The notes beneath the pieces are model-generated. The model was not told the DNA's origin. It worked only from the letters and a program-made list of their open reading frames with translations, and ran no database searches. The position numbers were made by a program, and so were the translations under genes. From contig JAEOTS010000134.1 of assembly GCA_016839745.1 (NCBI GenBank), forward strand, positions 1-23,898: a stretch of 23,898 nt of DNA, in the 5' to 3' direction. The stretch is from Promethearchaeota archaeon. GTDB taxonomy: Archaea; Asgardarchaeota; Lokiarchaeia; Sigyniarchaeales; SOKP01. Each line of letters opens with the position of its first letter. The first letter of the stretch is position 1. Positions 3,832-23,897 of this stretch are shown piece after piece.

Positions 3832-6800
3832 TTATACTGCAACTTCAGTAAGGTAAAGAACAACTAATAACAGAGCCCAAATAATCGTTAGGATTATTAA
3901 AATTATTGTTGTATAAAACCTCCACTTGATTGAAATCTTCTGTTTTTTCTCGATTCTATATATATAAATTGCCAATATTGCTCCTAATATAATTATGGAA
4001 GAAAGTATCAGAATTATACCAAAAAGAAAAGATTCAATGTAAGGTATTATTAATGCGAACACAAAAACTGTAAAACTTATCCAAAGAGTTATAAAACGTT
4101 GCATTCTATTCTTAAAAATCTTATCTATGTCGTCAGTTTTCTTGGGTGGGAGTAAAGAAATAAAAATTCCAGAATTTGCTAATGCTAATAGGGTTGCATG
4201 ATCCCCTCCTAGCAAAGGTATTAAACCAATTTCTTTAGAAAAAACTATTCCCACTGTTATACCCGCAAACACACAAAGAATAATTTCTATAACTCTAAGG
4301 TTATTTTTTAAGAAATTGATAAATGAATAATATACTCTTAGAAGAGAATTCTTTAGCTTGACATATATCAATCTTAAATTGTCTAGTATATTATTGAAGA
4401 AAGCCTTCAATTCTTCCAGCATAAAAACAAATAGGTATAACCAAATTCCTATAAAAATCCATGAGAAACTCCATCCAGATAATGATATATTAAAAGTAAT
4501 TATGCTTAACAACAAGAACAAAACGAGAGAATAGAGGAAAGAGCTAATTTTCTTACGTTTAAATGGTTTAAATAACGCTAAATTTATAATCATAAAGAAT
4601 AACAAAGAAAGGCTAAGATTAAGAATTAAATTGGGATTTACAAAGATTTCTAATGCTAAAAATATATCAAAAGATAATAAAACTTCAGTTAGAATGAAAC
4701 TAACAATCCTTAGATTCTTCCTAATCTTTTCAGTTACAGATTTAATGTTGTTGTCTAAGAATGTCAATCCAAGTAAAATAATAAATGACAAAAGAACTAA
4801 GTTTAGCGAAATAAAGAAATCAAGGCTAAGATAATATAATGGCCAAGTAATTAAATTAAGATAAACTAATCTCACAAGTGAATCTTTAATTTTAGATTGG
4901 TTTGACTTGATAAAATCCCAATCTTTCAATAATCTAAATAGGTAGGCGATTTGTATTATTAGGAGAAATATAATTATCGGTATTATCTGAACAAAGAATA
5001 TGGAAATCCAATCAAGATAGAATAAGAATGAAAATCCAATTAAAATTATCCACGAAAAGCTTATAAAGAAATTCGAGGCCTTTCCTAAAAACTTTAAAGC
5101 ATATTTATCAAATAACGCTAGTAAATGTGTGGTCAGGCTTAAAATCAAGACAATTAAATGAAATTCAAACCCAAAAAGTACTAAAGTATTGAGAATGCTA
5201 CCTAAAAGTAGAAAATAGACACCCCATCCTAATATATTCTGTCTTAAATTCTTCCATTTTTCAAATGAAGTCAATTTATCAGGATTAAACTTCCGCCTAA
5301 TATCGAAATATGAATAATTCGTGTAAAATTGCATTAAAATCGTTAAAAACGCTATTAAAACTAGAGAAAGCATAGAATCACTAAATATCCTATATAAAAT
5401 TATAAAAAGGATCCAAGAGATATTGATAAAACTAAAAGTATGAACTATTTCCATATATCCTTCCTTAAGACGCTTAATAGCATAAATTTCTAATATGCTT
5501 ATCAAGAATAACACAATCTGGGAAAACAATAAGCTTTCATAGAGGGCAAAGAATAACTGAAATAAGCCTAAAAACAAAAGAGAGGCTTCTAGATAAATGC
5601 TAAATATAATAAAAGAATAAATTTGCTTTATATTTTTCTTCCATTTCTCACTTCTAGTGAGTTTTCCTGAAAGATAAATTGTATAAGATGTGAAAATCGT
5701 TTCAGATAATAAAACTAAGATAATCCTGAATAAATCAAGAAGACTAAATATAGTGAAAAAAGATACCCAAAATACCGCAAAAAAGATTTGAAAGAAAATA
5801 AAGGCGCACAATAAAATACTTTTTTTAAGTTTGATTTCGATAGTACGATTTATTAATCCGTTTAGTACTAGCATCAATAAAGAAAAAATCATTCCAGAGA
5901 AACTTAATGAAGGATACCCATCTAATAATGGATTATATGTTATTAATAAACTACTTAACAATAATGAAATATATAAGCTAACCACGATGAAAATTGAATT
6001 TAATAGAATGTTCTGTATCTGGTTTCTAACTTTCCTTATTTTACTCGCTTCATATTGAGTTAATTTTTCAATGTAATAAGAGAGAGCATAGAGCGTATAA
6101 AATTGTAAAATCAAGAGTATAACTAGATTTAGTACTAATAAAGATGCATCTATCGCGATAAACTGGTTCAAAAACACGAATAGACTAATGGAAGTAATTA
6201 CATACGCTATTAAATTAAAAGCATATATGATTTTTTCGTTAACCTTCTTTATAAGGTGGATTTCGAATAAGGTTGAGATAAAAAATATTATTATGGAAAT
6301 TAAAACTGTTTCAAAGAAGCCAAAATCCACAGCTTCACTAATCAAACTAAAACTCAGAAGTCCAATCTCAAAATGTAATAACAATGAGAGAACCGATTCA
6401 GCTCTAAGCAAACCAAAACCTTTAAGATCCTCTTGAATTTTAACTTTTTTACTATACAACTTACATGGAATTTGGAATAAGGCAGTATAAAGTATCAAAG
6501 ATAATAAAATTATAATAACCGGAGATTGAAATAAAAGATTTAACACCATAAATTGTAAAACTATTAAGATTATTGGAATTGGAAAGGCATACCACAATAT
6601 AAATCGGTATTCGTAGAGTATTGATCTTAGTAAAATTGAATTTACTAAGATAAAAACAGCAATTGCTAAGTAAATAAAGCCAGGTAGGAAATAGTATGTT
6701 AAATAAGAAAGCGTTAAAGATACACCAAGTGATAGAATCGTTAAGGGAATTATTTTTTTTATCGGGATAATCATCCTAAACTTGTTAAATACGAAAAGAG

Positions 6801-9800
6801 AGCCCCCAAATACCGCTATCGCTAGAAATATTGAAAAAAGTTCGAGACCAGGAATCATAATAAGTGTGAAATAAGTGAACAAAGAGAAGTTTATAACCAG
6901 TATTGTGGAGATTAAGGTATTAAAAAAAGTCTTGTTGAGTTTGAGGAGTCTTGATGAAAATAAACTCAAAGCAAGTGTTATAAAAGCAATATTTATTGAT
7001 ATAGGTAAATTTTTGATTATCGCATTTATAATGCTAAAAATTGTAAGAAAAATTCCAACTAAAGAAATAAAATAAGATCCTACGAGAATTATGTTTTTGA
7101 TGTTCTTAAGATTAGGGAAAAATGACAAAATGAGAAAGAATATACCTAATATTATTAGATTGATTGATAAATTAATCTCTAGCGGTAGAAGGATTGCAGA
7201 GAATAAAGTGAAGAGGAAAGTAATGTTTACAACTATATAGAATAACCAAAGAATAGTTATAATCTTCCATAATCTTAATCGATAAATTATTGGTACTAGC
7301 AAAGAAATAGCGAAAACGACAAACACGATATTGGTTATCAGCACATTATTACTAAACACGTTTTGACTAAACCAATATAAGAAAAACAAACTGAAACTCC
7401 AAACTATTATGAGTACTTGAGAAAAATGCTTTTTAATCCACGAATACCAAAATGGTAATGAAAGTAGTATACAAATTACAAAGGATATTATGAAAGAGCC
7501 ATTAATGCTTAGTATGTCAAAGAAATTTAGAGCATTCGTATAAATATTGACATTTGTAAATATCTCATTAATGAGATAGAAATTAACAAAAGGGACTAAT
7601 ATCCAAAGTCTCCAACCAGTTTTCCAAATTGCCCAGGAAAACTTCCAGTAATAAATTCCGATTGATATGTAAAATAGAGCTATTCCAATATTAATCGTTA
7701 TTAAAAACAAGAAGGTATCCCATAATGGCAGAGAAAGTAGAGCATTTAAGAAGAAATACATAAACACAGGAAAAGAAATTGTGTAAATTGAAAATGCGAT
7801 ATAAAAGCTTATTTTTCTGAACTTTTCAGGTGTTTTATTGTATGTTCCTACATAGGCAATCCCTGTAATGGTTGAAGTTAATGTGAAAGTTAGTATTGGA
7901 TTAAAGTTCATAAAGATAGGGTTATTAAAGAGGATAAAATAGGATAGATAACTCATAAAACTAAAAGTTAGTAGTAGTACGCATGGTCTAATAAACCATT
8001 TATAGCGCTCATCTTTTTGTCTATAGAAAAAATTTCCAGTTAATATTAGGAATATAAATAAAGAAATTGATATGTTGTAAATCAAAGGTATACCTGTATT
8101 TATAATTAATAACAAAAGCGAGGTTATGGAGATTAAAGCGTATAGCGTAAATTTTTCGACCACATTTGTTTTCTTCATGTTGAATACGATTGATAAAAAT
8201 AATACTAAAATCATAGAAAAACCATAAATGAAAAAATAAACTGTGAAATAAGAAAAACTAAATGTGGGAATTAGCATATAGAGATTTAATGTGAAAATCG
8301 CTTTAACAAATATAAACCAACTAAGAGAGATATAAAATATTATACGAAATATAAAATTGCGATTCCTATTAGATATAAATAAGAAAAGCGGCATTAAGAA
8401 GAGTATATAAGAAAAGTATTCGAAAATAATTGGAAATATAGAAAAAAGAGAAAATAAAACCAGTAATGAACCGCTGAATATTTTTATCATTCTAAATTCT
8501 GATGCTCTTTCAATTATAGTATCAAATTTAAGTATATAGTAATTAAGAAACAGATATATAGCACATAGTACAAGTATGATTTGGAGTGCCTGATTCGAAC
8601 TAAAAAATGGAATATTGGAAGAAAATATCCAGAATAAATCAACAAAAATAATTATTAAAGCTAAAGAAAAAAGATAGAAAGTGAGTTTCTTAGATAATCT
8701 CAATGACTCATCAGAAATGGAAAATATCCTTCTTAAATAATAAATAGTAATCGGGCTCATAAAGATGATGATTAGAAGTGGTAATACTAACCTTAAAAGG
8801 ATAGAAATTTGAATAGGCAGAATAAAAATATAAAGAATAATAAGCAATTTAATAAAAATCCAAGCTGAAATTTCGAAAATACTTTTAATTTTTAAGAAAT
8901 CTACTTTAAATAAATATCCACAAACTGCTGAAATGATTAGATATATCGACATGAATATACCTAAATTAGTAATTGTAATTAAGAGTAAAGATTCTGGAAG
9001 ATACAATAGAGAGAGTAAGCTATGAGACGGTATTATTAGTGCTAAAATAGCAGCTATAGAAGTTATAATGGCAAAAAAAGAGATATTCTTGGTGTACTCG
9101 TATATTTTATAGATTTTATAATAATCAAATTTACTTACATCGTATTCGAAAATTCTTTGTTTTAGGTTTTCTAGCAGAATTAAAATGGCAAGGTTTATAA
9201 TGAAAAAAGTCAGACAAGAACAACTTATATTTAGCCAAAAATTGGTTGTTATAGAATCTATTAAACTATAAACCTTTAAGGCAATAAGCACAGATATCGT
9301 TATCCAGATAACAATCTGGGAGGTTTTAAGAGAAACAATACGATTTTCTTTGAGCTTATATTTATCAAAAAGAAATTCCAAGAATCTCAAAAATCCAAAA
9401 AATAAAAATATTGTAGTAAGGATTATGAAATAATAATCAATAACCATTCCAAATCTGATTAGCTCCAATCCTATTATAGTTGGAAGGGACATAATTAACG
9501 CAGATATTAACAGACTATCTACCAATAACATTTTTTCTACAAGTTTACTGAAAACCTTCTTGCTTGAGGAATAAAACAATGGAAGTAGCATTAGTAAGCT
9601 AAAAACTAACAGAGGAATAACAAATACAAGAACCGAGTTATTAGTTAATAAATATATGTAGTAAGAGCTTAGAACGCTTGTAAAACTTAAAGCTAAGATA
9701 TTAATCCCAATTGCACTCTTATCTGAAAAAATTATTCTATTTTTAGATAAAATATTGATGATAAAGCAAATTAGAATAGTCGAGAAGTACGCTGATAAAA

Positions 9801-11970
9801 CGGGCTCTATTAGAATTAGAAAAATTGAAAACAAAATGGCATAAACTTCTAAAATTATAAAGATATTGACCATAATAGAATACTTTTTAAAAGATTCACC
9901 TGATAGTAGGTTTAATTTTGCTCCAAACTTAAAAATATAATAAGAAACCACGGTAATAAAAAGAATATTAATCAAAATTAACACAATTAAAAAGAAATTA
10001 AAGAAATTAAAAATAACAAAAAAATTCAAGGCGAATATAGCCAGAGATATAAGAATAGAGCAATAAAAATGATATTTTAAGAAAGTAATAGGATTTAAAA
10101 CAGTTTTTTTTGACAAATAAAAAATAGGAATGTATGAAAGAATGCAAACAATAATAAGGGGTATGAAATAAATAAAGAAAGTTCCAACTGTGAAGATAAC
10201 GCTATAATATCCGGCAATAAATATACCAAAATAAAATGTGATTGTGTTTAGAATCATTGCCGGAAATTTAGGAAATAATTTTTCTTCCCTTGATGATATG
10301 TGAAAAATAATGCTAATTATAGATAGTGATAAGAAAGACGATATGAACTCATCTAAAGGAAGAAAAGTGGTAAAAACAGTAAAAAGCAGGACAAAAATTT
10401 CTATTATGATAGGATAACTTAATATGTTTAAGATAAACTTCGAGGACGATTCTTTTAACCGATTTATTTTCTTGCCAAACAAGATGAGAAGAACAAGACA
10501 AAATGTAAAGAATAGAATGTTTAATAGCGTTCCTAATATGAAATCGGCACTAAAATATATGTTAATGATAAAAAAGTTTAAAACAAAAATTAAAACCATT
10601 AGCACCCATGAGGAAGTGTAGCTATATAATGCTAGAACTTTAGGTTTTATGACATTCTCCTTATAGAGATAATACAATGGGGCATATAATAAAAAGCAGA
10701 AAATAACAGGAACAACAAGATAAAAATAGAAATAGTCAATATTAGCTTCTATAAAATAAAATCCAACAACATATATGTCAAATGCGAAAATGAAAGATGT
10801 TAATATTAATTTCATTTTTCTTGAAATTAATTTCTCGTACGGAGATAAGAGATTAAAAATCACTCCAATAATAGAAAGTGAAAGAAATATAGCAATAACC
10901 GGGTTAAATATAAAAACTATATTGAAAATTCCATAAAATAAGAAGAAAATTTCAAGCAAAAGAGCATAAAAATATATTTTAGCGATATTTAAGAAGGTAT
11001 TTTCTTCGATTTTTTTTATTACAGTTCCAAATTTTAGGTTTAATAGCGATAAAATCGTAAAAAAGATTAAATCAAATAATAAGATTACATAAGTATTCCA
11101 ATAAAGGGCTATTATTATAAGGAACATGGAGGAAATTAAAAACCAGAAAGTAACATAGGTGTAAGATAAACTTACTTCACGAGAGAATACTTTTATAATG
11201 TAATTTAATAATACAAATGATAGAAAAGCAGCTGAAATTAAAATCGTTGATAAAAATAAATCTCTTTGCAATAATTCAGGAACACCCAAAACGATATTTT
11301 TTAAGTTAACTAGTATAAACCAGTTCAATTCAATTAACAAAAATACGAATATTACGCAAAAATTAAAAAATCTCCAAGGTTTTGCATATAAATGAGCTCG
11401 TGCGTATAAGAAATAAAACGAAATTAATGTAATTATCAAAACAATAATTGAATGGATCAAAGTTTCAGAAATTAAAATCAAAATTGGATCTAATGTAAAA
11501 TTAATGTATACGAATTCAACAAGTGGAAAGAACGAATATAAAATTATGGTAAAACTAGTAACTGCAAGAATATTTTGTATGACAAGAACATTTTTCTCTA
11601 TAAAATAGCCTAGTTTCATAAAAATTTGAAAAATGAAATATAGAGATATACTAAAAATTATAAATTGTATATTAATGAGCGTTATTCCAAGGTAAGTTGG
11701 GGATATCCAAAATGCCACTAAAGCTAAGATTACTAAGCAATTAATCAGATATATATATCTACTATAAACTTTAAGAGTAAAATTCAATTTTTCTTCGATG
11801 TATGTAATAATGAACATTACTGGTAAGGAAAGGAAAAATACAACCAGAGTATTATTCAACAGAGAAATTAAGAGAGTTGCTAGAATTAAAAGAACCGAGA
11901 CAACGAAATTTAGCTTTTGATAGCTTCTATTATTCTCTAGATCAACTTCTTCAGAATTACTCGAATTCAT
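3832..11970 (-). CDS. Giant polytopic membrane protein (~2,710 aa) with internal TM repeats, function unknown
   Basis: 8.1-kb open frame, hydrophobic over almost its whole length with short Lys-rich loops. ATG 11970 (MNSSNSEE) follows a GAGG RBS and overlaps the end of the upstream gene; the track's longest start is 12000. Confidence 0.9.
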   Translation of the reverse strand: MNSSNSEEVDLENNRSYQKLNFVVSVLLILATLLISLLNNTLVVFFLSLPVMFIITYIEEKLNFTLKVYSRYIYLINCLVILALVAFWISPTYLGITLINIQFIIFSISLYFIFQIFMKLGYFIEKNVLVIQNILAVTSFTIILYSFFPLVEFVYINFTLDPILILISETLIHSIIVLIITLISFYFLYARAHLYAKPWRFFNFCVIFVFLLIELNWFILVNLKNIVLGVPELLQRDLFLSTILISAAFLSFVLLNYIIKVFSREVSLSYTYVTFWFLISSMFLIIIALYWNTYVILLFDLIFFTILSLLNLKFGTVIKKIEENTFLNIAKIYFYALLLEIFFLFYGIFNIVFIFNPVIAIFLSLSIIGVIFNLLSPYEKLISRKMKLILTSFIFAFDIYVVGFYFIEANIDYFYFYLVVPVIFCFLLYAPLYYLYKENVIKPKVLALYSYTSSWVLMVLIFVLNFFIINIYFSADFILGTLLNILFFTFCLVLLILFGKKINRLKESSSKFILNILSYPIIIEIFVLLFTVFTTFLPLDEFISSFLSLSIISIIFHISSREEKLFPKFPAMILNTITFYFGIFIAGYYSVIFTVGTFFIYFIPLIIVCILSYIPIFYLSKKTVLNPITFLKYHFYCSILISLAIFALNFFVIFNFFNFFLIVLILINILFITVVSYYIFKFGAKLNLLSGESFKKYSIMVNIFIILEVYAILFSIFLILIEPVLSAYFSTILICFIINILSKNRIIFSDKSAIGINILALSFTSVLSSYYIYLLTNNSVLVFVIPLLVFSLLMLLPLFYSSSKKVFSKLVEKMLLVDSLLISALIMSLPTIIGLELIRFGMVIDYYFIILTTIFLFFGFLRFLEFLFDKYKLKENRIVSLKTSQIVIWITISVLIALKVYSLIDSITTNFWLNISCSCLTFFIINLAILILLENLKQRIFEYDVSKFDYYKIYKIYEYTKNISFFAIITSIAAILALIIPSHSLLSLLYLPESLLLITITNLGIFMSIYLIISAVCGYLFKVDFLKIKSIFEISAWIFIKLLIILYIFILPIQISILLRLVLPLLIIIFMSPITIYYLRRIFSISDESLRLSKKLTFYLFSLALIIIFVDLFWIFSSNIPFFSSNQALQIILVLCAIYLFLNYYILKFDTIIERASEFRMIKIFSGSLLVLFSLFSIFPIIFEYFSYILFLMPLFLFISNRNRNFIFRIIFYISLSWFIFVKAIFTLNLYMLIPTFSFSYFTVYFFIYGFSMILVLFLSIVFNMKKTNVVEKFTLYALISITSLLLLIINTGIPLIYNISISLFIFLILTGNFFYRQKDERYKWFIRPCVLLLTFSFMSYLSYFILFNNPIFMNFNPILTFTLTSTITGIAYVGTYNKTPEKFRKISFYIAFSIYTISFPVFMYFFLNALLSLPLWDTFLFLITINIGIALFYISIGIYYWKFSWAIWKTGWRLWILVPFVNFYLINEIFTNVNIYTNALNFFDILSINGSFIISFVICILLSLPFWYSWIKKHFSQVLIIVWSFSLFFLYWFSQNVFSNNVLITNIVFVVFAISLLVPIIYRLRLWKIITILWLFYIVVNITFLFTLFSAILLPLEINLSINLIILGIFFLILSFFPNLKNIKNIILVGSYFISLVGIFLTIFSIINAIIKNLPISINIAFITLALSLFSSRLLKLNKTFFNTLISTILVINFSLFTYFTLIMIPGLELFSIFLAIAVFGGSLFVFNKFRMIIPIKKIIPLTILSLGVSLTLSYLTYYFLPGFIYLAIAVFILVNSILLRSILYEYRFILWYAFPIPIILIVLQFMVLNLLFQSPVIIILLSLILYTALFQIPCKLYSKKVKIQEDLKGFGLLRAESVLSLLLHFEIGLLSFSLISEAVDFGFFETVLISIIIFFISTLFEIHLIKKVNEKIIYAFNLIAYVITSISLFVFLNQFIAIDASLLVLNLVILLILQFYTLYALSYYIEKLTQYEASKIRKVRNQIQNILLNSIFIVVSLYISLLLSSLLITYNPLLDGYPSLSFSGMIFSLLMLVLNGLINRTIEIKLKKSILLCAFIFFQIFFAVFWVSFFTIFSLLDLFRIILVLLSETIFTSYTIYLSGKLTRSEKWKKNIKQIYSFIIFSIYLEASLLFLGLFQLFFALYESLLFSQIVLFLISILEIYAIKRLKEGYMEIVHTFSFINISWILFIILYRIFSDSMLSLVLIAFLTILMQFYTNYSYFDIRRKFNPDKLTSFEKWKNLRQNILGWGVYFLLLGSILNTLVLFGFEFHLIVLILSLTTHLLALFDKYALKFLGKASNFFISFSWIILIGFSFLFYLDWISIFFVQIIPIIIFLLIIQIAYLFRLLKDWDFIKSNQSKIKDSLVRLVYLNLITWPLYYLSLDFFISLNLVLLSFIILLGLTFLDNNIKSVTEKIRKNLRIVSFILTEVLLSFDIFLALEIFVNPNLILNLSLSLLFFMIINLALFKPFKRKKISSFLYSLVLFLLLSIITFNISLSGWSFSWIFIGIWLYLFVFMLEELKAFFNNILDNLRLIYVKLKNSLLRVYYSFINFLKNNLRVIEIILCVFAGITVGIVFSKEIGLIPLLGGDHATLLALANSGIFISLLPPKKTDDIDKIFKNRMQRFITLWISFTVFVFALIIPYIESFLFGIILILSSIIILGAILAIYIYRIEKKQKISIKWRFYTTIILIILTIIWALLLVVLYLTEVAV

Positions 11971-12919
11971 CAATTTCAAACCTCTTGAGTATTTTGTCAT
12001 AAAATGTACTTACATACAATCTGATTTTGAAGTAGAATAATAAGAAGATGAGAGATAATATCGAAATAGTAATGATTTCAATAATCTGATGTTGAATACC
12101 CGAGTAAATATAAATAAAGGTTATTACTAATGGCATTTGAATCAATAATGCGAACATTAAGCTTAATAATGAATTTACAAACTTTCTCTTATATTTAGTC
12201 AACTCCAATAGAAATTCTTTGCTATTTTTAGTTAACTTTGATAAATTCTTTATGTTTTTCATAGTTGTAAGTCGGGAAATAAGATAAAATACTAAATTCG
12301 AAATAAGTGGAAACAACCAAGAAACTTTAGTATAGAATGTATAAGAGAGAAATATGATATGAATGATATAATTGACAATAACTATGAGATTATATGGTTG
12401 TTTAATCCATTGAGAAAATGGTGTTTCATGTTTGTATTTCTCTTCATTATAGTCAAAATTGTCTATAGGTTGAAAGAAATAGTAATAATACACAATATTG
12501 TAAAGTATGCTAAATGATATTAAAGGTAAAAGCTCAAATTTTTTACTTGGAGTAAAAAAAACAAAAATAGGAGGAGGGAAAATAATGAAAATAGGAGTAA
12601 CTATCAAAGCTAAGATCGTAATTAAGAAAATAATATTAATTCTAGCAGATAGGTTGTTTTTTTTATTCAAGAAAAATGGATTATTTCTATATTTATCAAA
12701 AGGTTTGTAGAAAAACAATAATACGAACATGAATGTTATAACTGATAAACCAATTGAGACATAAAGGTCTTTTCCAATAAAGAAATAAATGAAAAAACCT
12801 ACTACAGCGACTAAAGAAGGTACTATGATTAAATAGAAACTAAACCACCAAATCTTCCAGAGCGATTCGGTGACTTTTTCAATTTTATCTTCAGAACTTC
12901 CGTTTTTATTAGATTTCAT
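11957..12919 (-). CDS. Hypothetical integral membrane protein (about 8 TM), first gene of a putative operon with the giant membrane protein
   Basis: Multiple hydrophobic segments; the 3' end overlaps the start of the giant ORF. Confidence 0.8.
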   Translation of the reverse strand: MKSNKNGSSEDKIEKVTESLWKIWWFSFYLIIVPSLVAVVGFFIYFFIGKDLYVSIGLSVITFMFVLLFFYKPFDKYRNNPFFLNKKNNLSARINIIFLITILALIVTPIFIIFPPPIFVFFTPSKKFELLPLISFSILYNIVYYYYFFQPIDNFDYNEEKYKHETPFSQWIKQPYNLIVIVNYIIHIIFLSYTFYTKVSWLFPLISNLVFYLISRLTTMKNIKNLSKLTKNSKEFLLELTKYKRKFVNSLLSLMFALLIQMPLVITFIYIYSGIQHQIIEIITISILSLIFLLFYFKIRLYVSTFYDKILKRFEIDEFE

Positions 12920-13069: not shown

Positions 13070-14392
13070 TTAACAAAACTCTGGAAGATAATTTTTTTGC
13101 AATTCCTTCATTTCTTCAAATATTTTGTCAGCCATTTCGAAACTTCCTACATTGGGATCAATCGCTAAAGCTGCTATTGCTAAGTCCTTCGATTTTTGAA
13201 GGATAGCTTCAACACATAGATCTTGGATAGTTGCTTCAATTCGAAGTAAAGCGGCAATATTAGTTGGTAATTTACCCCATTTAACTCCATTTACTCCCTT
13301 CTTATTGACTATTACGGGACACTCAATTACAAGATCCTTAGGTAGATTTTCGATGATGTTGTCATTTGGAATATTAACTGCACTTTCATAAGAATTACTG
13401 TCAGCAATAATTGCTTCGATAATTGGAATTGCTCTTTCTACTGAGGTTCCTTTATAGAACATTCCTTTTTTGAAATACCTTCCTTCTTTTAGACGCTTAT
13501 AGTTTCTCATGATACGTTTATATGTCCTCTTACCACCTTTTTCAGCAAAGTCAATCCAATCTGTCATATCAATAGTTTCAGTAAATTCTTCACCAAACCG
13601 TAAGTATTCACCAAGATGATTATCCCCTACGTACGGAAAATAGCCAAATCTTTTGAAAACTTCAAATGTTAATGAAGAAAATTCGAACCTTTCTTGATGT
13701 TGTTTAAAATACTCTGGAGCTATCTTGTTAAATTTCGGCATTAAATCCATTCCGGAAGAGATTTCCTCAATCCCCATTAAAAATCCAAAATGATTTAATC
13801 CATAAGGTTTTAGTTTTAAATTCTCAAATTTTATTTTGAGCATTTGAGGTAAATGGAATGTCATAGCTCCAATTTGATGACAAAGGCCTATAAATTTAAG
13901 ATTCGGAACTGTCCTTTTAATAGCTAAACATACCCTCGCCATTGGATTAGAAAAATTTATAAAAAAAGCATCAGGACATATATCGTTCACATCTTTTACA
14001 ATTTCCAAAATAGGAGGAATTACTCTAAATGCGTGCATTGTTCCCCCTGGTCCTCCGCATTCACCTAATATTTGAATCGACCCATATTTTCTTGGGATTT
14101 CGTAATCTTCTCTCCATAATTTATAACGATCTCCAACCTCTATTGAGCTTATAATAAAGTCTGCTCCATTCAATGCCTTTTTACGGTCTGTAGTGCGAAT
14201 AATATTAAATTCATTATTATGTATCTTGTTTTCAGCTTCGACTAATTCAAACATGACTTCCAAATGTTCTTTGTTGATATCATGTAGCACTATTGTTGAA
14301 CCTTGTAAAAGATTGCTCTGGTAAAGATCTAACAAAGAAGATGGCCCAAAAGAGGTGCTTCCAGCCCCAATTAGAACGATTTTTTTGTCCAT
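13070..14392 (-). CDS. Glycoside hydrolase family 4 (NAD+/Mn2+-dependent alpha-glucosidase/alpha-galactosidase type)
   Basis: KIVLIGAGS Rossmann motif, GECGGPGG, INFSNPMA, GLCH (metal-binding Cys), GLNH, DNHLGEY, ALAIDP. Confidence 0.93.
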   Translation of the reverse strand: MDKKIVLIGAGSTSFGPSSLLDLYQSNLLQGSTIVLHDINKEHLEVMFELVEAENKIHNNEFNIIRTTDRKKALNGADFIISSIEVGDRYKLWREDYEIPRKYGSIQILGECGGPGGTMHAFRVIPPILEIVKDVNDICPDAFFINFSNPMARVCLAIKRTVPNLKFIGLCHQIGAMTFHLPQMLKIKFENLKLKPYGLNHFGFLMGIEEISSGMDLMPKFNKIAPEYFKQHQERFEFSSLTFEVFKRFGYFPYVGDNHLGEYLRFGEEFTETIDMTDWIDFAEKGGKRTYKRIMRNYKRLKEGRYFKKGMFYKGTSVERAIPIIEAIIADSNSYESAVNIPNDNIIENLPKDLVIECPVIVNKKGVNGVKWGKLPTNIAALLRIEATIQDLCVEAILQKSKDLAIAALAIDPNVGSFEMADKIFEEMKELQKNYLPEFC

Positions 14393-21308: not shown

Positions 21309-23897
21309 TTGCCTAGTCCAAAAAAAACTAAGAGAAGACCTCCTGCTGATGAGAAGCAAAAATCTCTCTTTTCTTTTGTAGAAAAAACAGAAGCTAAGAA
21401 AGAAGTAAAAAGCAAACATATTGCAAAAAAAGAAGATAAAGCGTTAGAGGACCAATTAATACCTCAAGAGCCGCCTGAGACAAAAGATATAAAAGAAGAG
21501 ATTAAAGATAAAGCCGAACCAGCGTTAAAAGGAACTCCAAAAAAGCAATATTTTAAAAGTTCAGGCATACCCTTTGGTTTAAAAGAAAATGGTATACAAC
21601 TCCAAAATATCAAAAGAGAAAGTGTAAGCTCTAAATACATTCGGTATCTAATTGAAAAGGGAGAAATCGTAGAGGATTTGGAAAGAGGTCTACTTTTAGA
21701 TGTAGATTATGATGGGGGGTTGAATAAAGCATATTGCAAATTTTACGACTTGGATACTGATGATATTAAAATATGGGTTGATACTACTGATCACGAACCT
21801 TATTGTTTGAGTAAAGAACCAATTTCAATGCTTGAACAGCTGACTTATAAAGATCAAGCGGGGAGAAGAAAGAAATTGGTTGATTACGAGGGGTTTAAAA
21901 GGTTTGAAGAAATTAAGAAGTTTGACTTGCTCACTGATAAAGAAATACCTATGACGAGGATATACGGTAAAACACCCATAGATATAGGAGGATCTGGATT
22001 GAATGTTAAAAATATTCTAGCTGAAAACGAAAAAAAGGCGTGGGAAGCGGACATTCGATACCATCTGAATTACATTTTAGATCGACAGTTAATCCCGGGA
22101 CTTATATATCGTATCAATAGCGGTAAACTTGAAAAAATCGATTTTAAAGAAAGTTCTGATGAAACTAAAATATTAACAAACGAACTGAGAACTCTGTTTA
22201 AAGGTGAAAAACCAGAAATGCAGGAATTTTCTGAAAAATTTATCGATATTTTCCTAACACCAATTCCTGATGTAAAACGATTAGCTATGGATATCGAAGT
22301 AAAAGTAGGAGAACACGATTATAGGATTCCAGATGCTCGCCTTGCAAAGCAAGAAATAATTTCCATATCATTTGTAGCTTCAGAAGGTTTAAAATTAGTG
22401 TATATTTTAGAGCGCGAGGGTTTCACTTTTGATAAACTCCATGCAGAATTCCCAGATGACGCTAAACTTTACTTCTTTAAATCTGAAAAGGAATTATTAA
22501 CTGAAGCTTTTAGAATTATATGGGAATATCCTGTGATTATTACCTTTAATGGAGACAATTTTGATTTAAATTATATGTTTCACAGAGCAGAAAAATTGAA
22601 AATAGACAAAGATTTAAACCCTATCCATGTAAAAAGGGGTTTTGGAATAATGGCAAAGTCAGAATGCGATTTAAGGAAAGGAATCCATATAGATGTCTTT
22701 AACTTTTTCTTTAATCGAAGTATTTCAGGATACGCCTTTGGTGGGTCTTATCAGAGTGCCTCCTTAAACGCCATCAGCGAAGCGTTATTAGGTGAAAAGA
22801 AATACGAACACGAAGAAGAAATTCACGATATGGAATACGATGTTCTTTCTTGGTATAATCTTAAAGATTCGATTTTAACCTTAGATCTTACTAAATTCAA
22901 TAATTCGCTTGTATGGAATTTGATCATTTTGTTATGTAGGATAACAAAATTACCAATGCACGATATGATTAGAAGGCAAATTTCAACATGGATACAAAAT
23001 ATTTTTTATTTCGAGCATCGTAGAAAAAAAATTCTCATTCCTAGAAGGTCTGAAATATCTGATGCGAAAAAAGGTGGAGCATTGATGTCAAAATTTAACG
23101 GTGAAAAATTTCAAGGTGCTTACGTTATCGATCCTGTTCCGGGTATTCATTATGATGTTGTTGTTATGGATTTTGCTTCCCTGTATCCCTCAATCATAAA
23201 AGAGTTTAATTTATCTTATGAAACTGTACTCTGTCCCCACAAAGACGATGAAGACAACCTTATAAAAGGTACTCCATATCATATCTGTACTCATAAGATG
23301 GGAATCTTTGCGTATGTAGTCGGTTTTTTCCGTGATACGAGAGTAAAATACTTCAAACCGAAATCAAGCGATAAACGTTTGACTCCAAAACAGCGAAGTT
23401 ATTATCACACTATCCAACAAGCGCTTAAAGTGTTCATTAACGCAAGTTATGGCGTATTTGGATCTCAAAATTTCCCGCTTTTTTGTTTACCTGTCGCTGA
23501 AAGCACTACAGGAATCGGTCAATACTCTATAAAACAAACTATACAAAAAGCAGAAGAACTTGGGGTGAAAGTTCTGTATGGTGACACAGATAGTGTTTTT
23601 CTTCTCAATCCATCCAGTTCCCAAATGAAAGAAATATCAGATTGGAGCAAAAAAGAGCTTGATTTAGATTTAGAAGAAGAAAAAACTTACCAATTCTTAG
23701 CACTTTCCCAGAGAAAGAAAAATTACATAGGGATATATAAAGATACCAAATATGTTGACATAAAAGGACTTGTAGCAAAAAAGAAAAACACCCCAGATTT
23801 TATTAAAAAAGTGTTCAGTCAGCTAATAGAGATTCTAAAAGAAATAACTAATGATGAAGAGTTCAATCTCGCAAAGAAAAGAATTATTGAAATTGTT
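21309..23897 (+). CDS. polB1: Family B DNA polymerase, PolB1 type (3'-truncated by the window end)
   Basis: Open frame from TTG 21309 to the window end. ExoI MDIEV, ExoII TFNGDNFD, ExoIII WYNLKD, motif A DFASLYPSII, motif B KVFINASYGVFG, motif C YGDTDS, KKNY; PolB1-like HEPYCLS, WEADIRY and KGLVAKKKNTP; N-terminal PIP-like QKSLFSF. Confidence 0.95.
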   Translation, partial: MPSPKKTKRRPPADEKQKSLFSFVEKTEAKKEVKSKHIAKKEDKALEDQLIPQEPPETKDIKEEIKDKAEPALKGTPKKQYFKSSGIPFGLKENGIQLQNIKRESVSSKYIRYLIEKGEIVEDLERGLLLDVDYDGGLNKAYCKFYDLDTDDIKIWVDTTDHEPYCLSKEPISMLEQLTYKDQAGRRKKLVDYEGFKRFEEIKKFDLLTDKEIPMTRIYGKTPIDIGGSGLNVKNILAENEKKAWEADIRYHLNYILDRQLIPGLIYRINSGKLEKIDFKESSDETKILTNELRTLFKGEKPEMQEFSEKFIDIFLTPIPDVKRLAMDIEVKVGEHDYRIPDARLAKQEIISISFVASEGLKLVYILEREGFTFDKLHAEFPDDAKLYFFKSEKELLTEAFRIIWEYPVIITFNGDNFDLNYMFHRAEKLKIDKDLNPIHVKRGFGIMAKSECDLRKGIHIDVFNFFFNRSISGYAFGGSYQSASLNAISEALLGEKKYEHEEEIHDMEYDVLSWYNLKDSILTLDLTKFNNSLVWNLIILLCRITKLPMHDMIRRQISTWIQNIFYFEHRRKKILIPRRSEISDAKKGGALMSKFNGEKFQGAYVIDPVPGIHYDVVVMDFASLYPSIIKEFNLSYETVLCPHKDDEDNLIKGTPYHICTHKMGIFAYVVGFFRDTRVKYFKPKSSDKRLTPKQRSYYHTIQQALKVFINASYGVFGSQNFPLFCLPVAESTTGIGQYSIKQTIQKAEELGVKVLYGDTDSVFLLNPSSSQMKEISDWSKKELDLDLEEEKTYQFLALSQRKKNYIGIYKDTKYVDIKGLVAKKKNTPDFIKKVFSQLIEILKEITNDEEFNLAKKRIIEIV

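Follow-up and report, generated by a model that had tools for sequence, protein, structure and literature searches.

A Giant Lokiarchaeial Membrane Protein Predicted to Carry Three Tandem Copies of a Six-Helix Module Ahead of a Conserved Core

Introduction

Piezo1 and Piezo2 contain 38 transmembrane (TM) helices per chain, and their blade is made up of nine repeat units with four TM helices each. Among much smaller membrane subunits, NuoK carries Glu residues in the middle of the membrane. Arc3A, which prevents the accumulation of lysophospholipids, is described as large, with 35 predicted TM domains and without residues that indicate enzymatic activity, and its relatives have TM segments in high but varying numbers (PMC8926400). 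Here, we analyze the gene of a giant membrane protein in a stretch of 23,898 nucleotides (the window), which corresponds to positions 1 to 23,898 of contig JAEOTS010000134.1 from a Promethearchaeota archaeon of the Lokiarchaeia (assembly GCA_016839745.1). The open reading frame (ORF) occupies 3832..12000 on the reverse strand and encodes 2722 residues, counted from the first ATG, with ca 87 predicted TM segments. As far as we know, Piezo is the largest well-studied case of such a chain, and the protein considered here has roughly twice its number of helices.

Few archaea are as closely related to eukaryotes as the Lokiarchaeia, whose cultured members form elaborate protrusions of the membrane. 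An earlier reading of the same DNA, called the original prediction below, had drawn attention to an internal repeat in the protein. We re-examine this repeat by means of profile searches, structure prediction and comparison across genomes. The architecture that very probably applies is that of a tandem 184-residue six-helix TM module, present three times towards the N-terminus of a giant polytopic orphan protein of Lokiarchaeia. As judged from the sequences, the gene is real and has no detectable relative outside its own family, and we have found no published description of it.

Results and Discussion

The three units of the repeat follow each other without gap on the reverse strand. Unit 1 is encoded at 10483..11034 (residues 323–506), unit 2 at 9931..10482 (residues 507–690) and unit 3 at 9370..9930 (residues 691–877), and each of them has six TM helices and a Glu in the middle of a helix, namely Glu350, Glu534 and Glu718, respectively. 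Unit 3 is the ancestral copy, common to the whole family. All ten sequence motifs quoted in the original prediction are present in the translated ORF. The anchors KFGTVIKKIEE, LFGKKINRLKE, KFGAKLNLLSGE and EFLFDKYKLKE start at residues 323, 507, 691 and 875, with a spacing of exactly 184, and their Phe residues are at the stated positions 324, 508, 692 and 876. The Glu motifs and the helices with two Pro residues were likewise found where they had been placed.

The statistical significance of the repeat was evaluated in several ways. Smith–Waterman alignments compared with shuffled sequences give z values of 29 for unit 1 versus unit 2, 14 for unit 2 versus unit 3 and 7 for unit 1 versus unit 3, and all other pairs on the 184-residue register are at the noise level. 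A hidden Markov model (HMM) of the unit, built from the three copies and iterated to 113 copies across the family, finds exactly three full copies in the protein (323–506, 507–690 and 691–877), with E values of 1e-47 to 1e-54. A profile–profile comparison of the HHrepID type, performed with hhalign, also detects a significant internal repeat, with probabilities of at least 96% only for windows that overlap residues 323–877; when the unit profile is compared with windows elsewhere in the chain, the probability is at most 21%.

These results set limits to what had been proposed. The fourth anchor, at residue 875, does not start a further unit, its z value being close to 0 in the Smith–Waterman comparison and its hhalign probability 0.2%. 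The repeat had also been called exact, which is true for the spacing of the anchors but not for the units themselves, as units 1 and 2 are only 34% identical and unit 3 requires insertions and deletions to be aligned. Finally, nothing outside residues ca 258–877 matches the unit, and the repeat, which covers about 20% of the chain, can therefore not be extrapolated to the rest of it, as the original prediction had done.

The copies are, by their sequences, apparently old. Units 1 and 2, which share 34% of their residues, share 52% of their bases, and the nucleotide identity among the three units is ca 36–52%. A six-frame search of the source genome, which is 89% complete, finds the module at these three places only. 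Across the 113 copies, four positions are kept in about 90%, namely the Glu of helix 1, a Gly in a loop and, within the helix-4 motif, the second Pro and the Tyr. An internal 3+3 symmetry within the unit was not found, the comparison of one half with the other giving z values of −1.0 to 0.5.

Upstream of unit 1, residues 258–322 (11035..11229, reverse strand) form a possible partial unit, similar to the two helices with which a unit ends. In a windowed search with orthologue profiles, residues 241–360 match 429–544 (E 1.4e-7) and residues 421–540 match 258–355 (E 2e-5), which suggests that the array begins with a partial unit at residues ca 258–322; the family-wide unit profile does not detect it. 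Evidence for a wider repetition beyond the three units is at best marginal. When the family profile is compared with itself, the true repeats score 463–485 and a few other off-diagonal alignments 62–90, while the maximum of the reversed-profile control is 57.7. A periodicity of ca 130 residues within 1840–2550 scores 57.6, practically the same as this null maximum, and was treated as noise. For a similarity between the N-terminal and C-terminal arms the scores are 62–72, marginally above the null, and no claim is made on their basis.

The TM helices were counted by a simple dynamic-programming segmentation on the Kyte–Doolittle scale. Depending on the threshold, 80–92 hydrophobic segments are obtained for the giant protein, and six for each unit. 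A model of residues 301–900 calculated with AlphaFold2 from a 51-sequence alignment is all-helical, with a predicted local distance difference test score (pLDDT) of 75.5 and a predicted template modelling score (pTM) of 0.46, and DSSP assigns to each unit six helices of 18–32 residues. The six TM segments per unit that had been counted by eye are thus reproduced by both methods. Glu350, Glu534 and Glu718 lie about halfway along the first helix of the respective unit (model helices 33–62, 217–246 and 401–430, in this order). The helix density is 21–22 per ca 600 residues, both here and in the model of the core discussed below.

The loops of the chain follow a very regular pattern. Neighbouring loops alternate between rich (at least two) and poor in Lys/Arg in 93% of the pairs, compared with a fraction of 0.51 ± 0.05, and at most 0.72, in 2000 shuffles. 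The 37 loops free of Lys/Arg have a median length of 4 residues and a maximum of 14, while for the 44 Lys/Arg-rich ones the corresponding values are 16 and 45. The latter value is that of the longest loop in the chain, and no soluble domain is predicted. From its sequence, the giant protein would be almost entirely membrane-embedded, consisting of helical hairpins with tight outer turns and longer loops that the positive-inside rule places in the cytoplasm. Each module is predicted to begin and end on the Lys/Arg-rich side, which by the same rule is cytoplasmic. The figure of ca 80 helices, which the original prediction had extrapolated from its repeat, agrees with the 80–92 segments, with the loop alternation and with the helix density of the two models; it is thus reasonable because of the hydropathy, and not because of the repeat.

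The best-conserved part of the family lies outside the units. This non-repeat core (6691..8163, reverse strand) comprises residues 1280–1770, i.e. ca 490 residues and about 20 helices. In the family alignment, the column identity is 0.44–0.61 at residues 1300–1750, to be compared with 0.11–0.41 across the repeat region, and the core profile reaches E values down to 4e-220 within the family. For residues 1240–1810, AlphaFold2 yields a confident model with 22 helices, a pLDDT of 81.9 and a pTM of 0.71, according to which the core would be a unique, well-packed conserved domain. The layout of the protein is thus modules first, then the core, and then a long C-terminal helical region.

When 5.8 billion clustered proteins were searched, 66 homologues of 1.5–3.75 thousand residues were obtained, with local identities of 28–82% and none of them with a Pfam domain. 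They are annotated as "hypothetical protein" or "membrane protein of unknown function" (e.g. HWN80_01540, KGD68_01055, ACTSPU_00615 and MDO8086144.1), and the taxon labels of all the named ones are Lokiarchaeota, Promethearchaeota, Sigynarchaeota or another Asgard group. In many species, at 58–82% identity, the frame remains open for over 2,700 codons. Relative to the L007 orthologue, the ratio of nonsynonymous to synonymous substitution rates (dN/dS) is 0.16 overall, 0.12 in the repeats and 0.09 in the core, and every region is within 0.09–0.25. Sequence conservation of this kind indicates that the giant gene is real and under purifying selection. The protein combines the features that characterize this undescribed family of giant Lokiarchaeial polytopic proteins, namely the ca 490-residue core, at least one six-helix module ahead of it, and an almost purely transmembrane composition.

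The distribution of the gene was examined in a sample of 400 genomes from the phylum. It is matched in 107 of the 134 genomes of the source family and in 5 of the 19 from three other families of the same order, and was not found in the remaining sampled families outside the order. In the source genome it is present in a single copy. The unit is matched in 92 of 135 genomes of the source family: counting half-units, one match is found in 44 genomes, two in 21, three in 24 and four in three. Every unit match listed is in a long open frame of this gene, of 2,000–3,341 residues if the gene is complete and of at least 558 residues on contig pieces. The unit number, whose variation had been proposed as a check on the repeat, does indeed vary from 1 to 4 between lineages of this Lokiarchaeial family.

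The family data also indicate how the array arose. In the family alignment, copies 1 and 2 (residues ca 351–500) are present in only about 19% of the members. In a tree of the 113 unit copies, copy 3 of the present clade groups with the single copies of other clades, and copies 1 and 2 cluster with additional copies that one sister clade possesses. The unit tree and the genome counts show that other lineages have expanded the module independently, to 1–4 copies plus half-units of ca 110–130 residues. On this phylogenetic basis, the ancestral state is a single unit, and units 1 and 2 are a lineage-specific duplication upstream of the unique core.

Directly upstream of the giant gene is a second membrane protein gene (11957..12919, reverse strand), encoding 320 residues with 8 predicted TM segments. 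The encoded chain is the counterpart of the first ca 310 residues of fused homologues, and can be regarded as a split-off N-terminal subunit. The ORF matches the N-termini of 31 longer homologues, 27 of them over the full length at 45–52% identity and 4 more weakly or partially, and the gene junction aligns inside a variable cytoplasmic loop of the fused proteins. Together, the giant and the 320-residue products have ca 95 predicted membrane helices, with short uncharged loops (median 4 residues) on one side, Lys/Arg-rich loops of 10–45 residues on the opposite one, and no soluble domain in either product.

The two genes overlap by 14 nucleotides, and the change of frame between them amounts to one base. 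At the coupling junction (11957..11986, reverse strand), a Shine–Dalgarno-like AAGAGG (11986–11981) is followed by a conserved ATG (11970–11968) and by the TAA stop of the upstream gene (11959–11957). The same arrangement is shared by L002–L012, which have AGGAGG, then an ATG (TTG in two loci) ca 8–10 nucleotides downstream, and the TAA of the upstream gene a few codons later. All ten orthologous loci compared within the genus have the two ORFs in different frames, and in L013 and L014, which belong to the same genus, the two parts are fused in frame. Since most orthologues have an in-frame stop immediately before the conserved ATG, the ATG at 11970 is likely the true start. The giant subunit would then probably begin at this second ATG (MNSSNSEE...), which gives 2712 residues. 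We read the split as a stable one, with translational coupling, and not as a sequencing error or a frameshift, as far as can be judged from the sequences.

Two further arrangements were observed in other loci. The subgroup with 2541 residues (L024) also has a separate upstream ORF, of 312 residues. At 9061–15295 of L027 (G189:C1, an apparently closed single-contig genome of 3.3 Mb) there are two adjacent open frames, of 1343 residues, which match the query, and of 716 residues, for which no match was found; here the gene may be split at a second site, broken, or simply divergent.

No relative of the protein outside its own family, and no match to an already characterized family, was found in the searches of Pfam, NCBIfam, PDB sequences, folds and 1.84 billion representative proteins. 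Pfam contains no credible family for either the whole protein (E ≤ 1) or six fragments of it (E ≤ 10), and NCBIfam gives no match for the giant protein. A Syndecan row in Pfam at E 0.96 is at chance level, and Pfam matches of single members (DUF2070 and others, E ≥ 0.0014), each found in 1 of 22 units, were dismissed. The family and unit profiles match no PDB chain at E ≤ 1 and E ≤ 10. An exhaustive HMMER search with the core profile against the 1.84 billion representative proteins gave 49 matches at E ≤ 0.001, which have 0.9–3.2 thousand residues or are short fragments matching part of the core, and none of the 49 hints at another family. Full-text literature searches did not yield any description of such a protein.

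At the level of structure, the best E values that Foldseek gave for the fragment models are 0.12 for the repeat model and 1.1 for the core model. The best Foldseek rows are solenoids of the TPR type, with TM-scores of only 0.1–0.2. In exhaustive VIA alignments of the repeat model, the best matches are MrpF (Z 9.6, root-mean-square deviation (rmsd) 3.4 Å, 89 residues) and NuoK (Z 9.5, rmsd 3.1 Å, 88 residues), and for the core model these three-helix subunits are again the best matches, with Z 8.8. The VIA matches span 82–89 residues, and a Z value of ca 13 is the level that the tool itself regards as background among helical proteins. The rows listed by the fold searches include neither GT-C glycosyltransferases nor transporter folds, and their absence from the list does not exclude them.

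We now consider what the protein may do. The best explanation as a whole, which we find plausible but adopt tentatively, is that the triplicated six-helix modules form an arm on the core and that the protein acts as a membrane scaffold. Whole blocks with an even number of helices would be added or removed at one site, without a change in topology and without loss of the gene. Because such blocks are repeatedly gained and lost at one site, the modules are probably arranged in series, as an arm, and this serial array is favoured over a compact carrier, which would be disrupted by the insertion of 6 or 12 helices. Most likely, the modules would stack within the membrane as an arm that can be extended and that is joined to the conserved core. 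The protein could then be an in-plane structural platform that organizes or shapes the membrane and offers conserved cytoplasmic loops to partners, and the buried Glu of each module could be a helix-packing site or a site for a cation or a lipid headgroup. Taken by itself, the scaffold function, which had been one of the suggestions in the original prediction, is a possibility that the sequence allows us to advance with rather low confidence. Curvature generation and mechanosensing, which the original prediction had also named, may be considered as well, the repeated gain and loss of helix blocks being the only argument that the sequences offer.

Several points weigh against this explanation. 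The TM counts are from a simple hydropathy segmentation, with no trained predictor involved. On the Kyte–Doolittle scale the segmentation was stable at 80–92, but a version on a free-energy scale was unstable, ranging from 62 to 4 segments depending on the penalty, and was dropped. The pTM of the three-unit model is only 0.46, and the relative placement of the units, linear or compact, is accordingly not fixed by the model. Conserved charged residues inside helices (E534, K1051, R1219, E2138, H2292 and D2445) would fit ion or substrate handling equally well. The sequencing runs that contain the DNA are marine-sediment metagenomes, and among the runs listed for the sequence there is no RNA run.

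An alternative that we consider unlikely is an ion-conducting or proton-relay chain, in which modules and core would make up a long hydrophilic axis of buried charges, as in the membrane arm of complex I or in Mrp antiporters, and protons or cations would be moved across the membrane or along it. Each module has one conserved mid-membrane Glu, the residues K1051, R1219, E2138, H2292 and D2445 are conserved in the family inside predicted helices, and MrpF and NuoK are the best structural matches of both models; it is the conserved in-helix charges that keep an ion-relay function under consideration. However, the Z values are below the generic helical level and involve three helices only. No antiporter-like (PF00361) or NuoK/MrpF-type family is matched by the giant protein in Pfam or NCBIfam, and no redox or energy-coupling gene is among its conserved neighbours in the compared loci.

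A lipid-handling or membrane-protection role is, in our view, equally improbable. By analogy with Arc3A, the helices would sequester or buffer certain lipids, e.g. lysolipids, or protect the membrane from lipases. The very high helix density, the variable number of helices and the lack of a catalytic motif are as in Arc3A, and this analogy is the reason for keeping a lipid-buffering function in the discussion. There is, on the other hand, no sequence relation, since PF10101 is unmatched in the protein, in its genome and in 151 Asgard genomes. In addition, the ether lipids of archaea are not known to be cleaved by the ester phospholipases against which Arc3A acts.

The original prediction had viewed the chain as a membrane-embedded solenoid, and one could then suppose that it consists of about fourteen six-helix units of 184 residues, most of them diverged beyond recognition. 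The helix density is uniform along the chain, and the off-diagonal self-alignments at 62–90 do exceed the null maximum of 57.7. Nevertheless, we judge this to be very unlikely. The profile of 113 unit copies finds nothing outside residues 323–877, the ancestral state is a single unit, and conservation marks the core as a unique, well-packed domain. No more than three units can be detected, two of them lineage-specific, and the best-conserved part of the protein is the non-repeat core of about 20 helices. What stands of the solenoid is that the protein is predicted to be almost wholly in the membrane and to be built partly of tandem helical modules; a solenoid of 184-residue units over the whole chain, in contrast, is not supported.

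The last alternative, that of an AT-rich open frame, a pseudogene or a mis-assembly, could draw on the G+C content of 25–29%, below that of the neighbours, and on the splitting of the gene over two frames, but it is refuted by the conservation data and deserves practically no credence: the long frame is open in many species with dN/dS of 0.09–0.25 in every region, the split is conserved with its own ribosome-binding site and start codon, and an assembler could not confuse units whose nucleotide identity is only ca 36–52%. The probability that is left after these explanations and the modular arm on a conserved core belongs to a function that has not yet been imagined.

Some features of the surrounding DNA should also be mentioned. 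Leu, Ile and Phe make up 46% of the residues of the giant protein, and this composition accounts for the low G+C content of its gene, 25–29% as compared to 30–35% in the adjoining genes. The genes near the giant ORF in the window include those of a TBP-domain protein, a family-B DNA polymerase, a family 4 glycoside hydrolase (GH4) and an aminotransferase. The GH4 gene (13070..14392, reverse strand; Pfam PF02056 and PF11975) is on the same strand as the membrane genes, 150 nucleotides upstream of them, and this neighbourhood is retained in 6 of 10 loci, which represent two genera. A functional link with the giant protein is conceivable, and the adjacency was not counted as evidence for one.

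A multi-helix membrane ORF of 184 residues is located at 1742–2296 on the reverse strand, 3' of the giant gene and separated from it by the TBP-domain gene, which is on the opposite strand. It is kept at this place within the genus, at 63–73% identity, and neither Pfam and NCBIfam families nor the unit profile match it; the agreement of its length with the repeat period appears, from the sequences, to be a coincidence. The family-B DNA polymerase ORF (21309–23897, forward strand) runs past the end of the window and has a Lys/Glu-rich extension of ca 80 residues before its exonuclease domain.

In a broader perspective, a near-universal, single-copy and selected gene of one Lokiarchaeial family encodes a product that is predicted to be almost wholly intramembrane. 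The fold, the function and the membrane insertion of a chain of ca 87 helices pose questions, and the gain and loss of modules together with the natural split into two subunits provide ready-made variants for probing how such a protein is built. A more far-reaching view, speculative and in our estimate unlikely, is that this is the most membrane-spanning single polypeptide described (ca 87 helices, or ca 95 with the subunit) and a machine specific to Lokiarchaeia, with a hub and with arms that grow by six- and four-helix blocks, which, by way of its conserved loops in the cytoplasm, would shape, stiffen or sense tension in the unusual membranes from which these archaea form protrusions.

Comparison with Known Systems

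The best superpositions with known structures are those with MrpF (7qru_F) and NuoK (3rko_K), which fall on the last three helices of units 2 and 3. The scores are in the generic range for helical proteins and only three helices are involved, whereas a sequence match and antiporter-like partner subunits are both lacking.

Arc3A, of the DUF2339 family (P. aeruginosa PA5114), resembles the present protein in being very large and densely polytopic; in both cases the number of TM segments varies and catalytic residues are not evident. It differs in being bacterial, with 35 TM segments, the partner Arc3B and a role in the defence against phospholipase toxins, and none of this context is found here. 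Membership in DUF2339 was rejected, as PF10101 matches neither the protein, nor a six-frame translation of its own genome (E ≤ 1), nor the 151 Asgard genomes, while the control genomes were matched.

With Piezo, the protein shares the giant polytopic character and TM helical bundles that are partly in tandem and form an arm. The original prediction had claimed no homology to Piezo, and none is indicated by either Pfam families or PDB chains. Piezo is not among the listed rows of the four fold searches with Foldseek and VIA either, although for models of more than 400 residues such absence does not exclude the fold. The differences are considerable. The unit has six helices here and not four, three units are detectable and not nine, and no cap or beam is predicted, the longest loop being 45 residues and those on the Lys/Arg-poor side at most 14. 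The chain has more than twice as many helices, and its host is archaeal and not eukaryotic.

Closest by far are the uncharacterized orthologues. Their identity to the query is 33–82% over the part that aligns. They have the same conserved core, and their full-length members carry 1–4 copies of the same six-helix module. The number of units and the total length (2.4–3.75 thousand residues) differ from those of the giant protein here, and many of the orthologues are fused with the N-terminal 310 residues that in the present genome form a separate gene.

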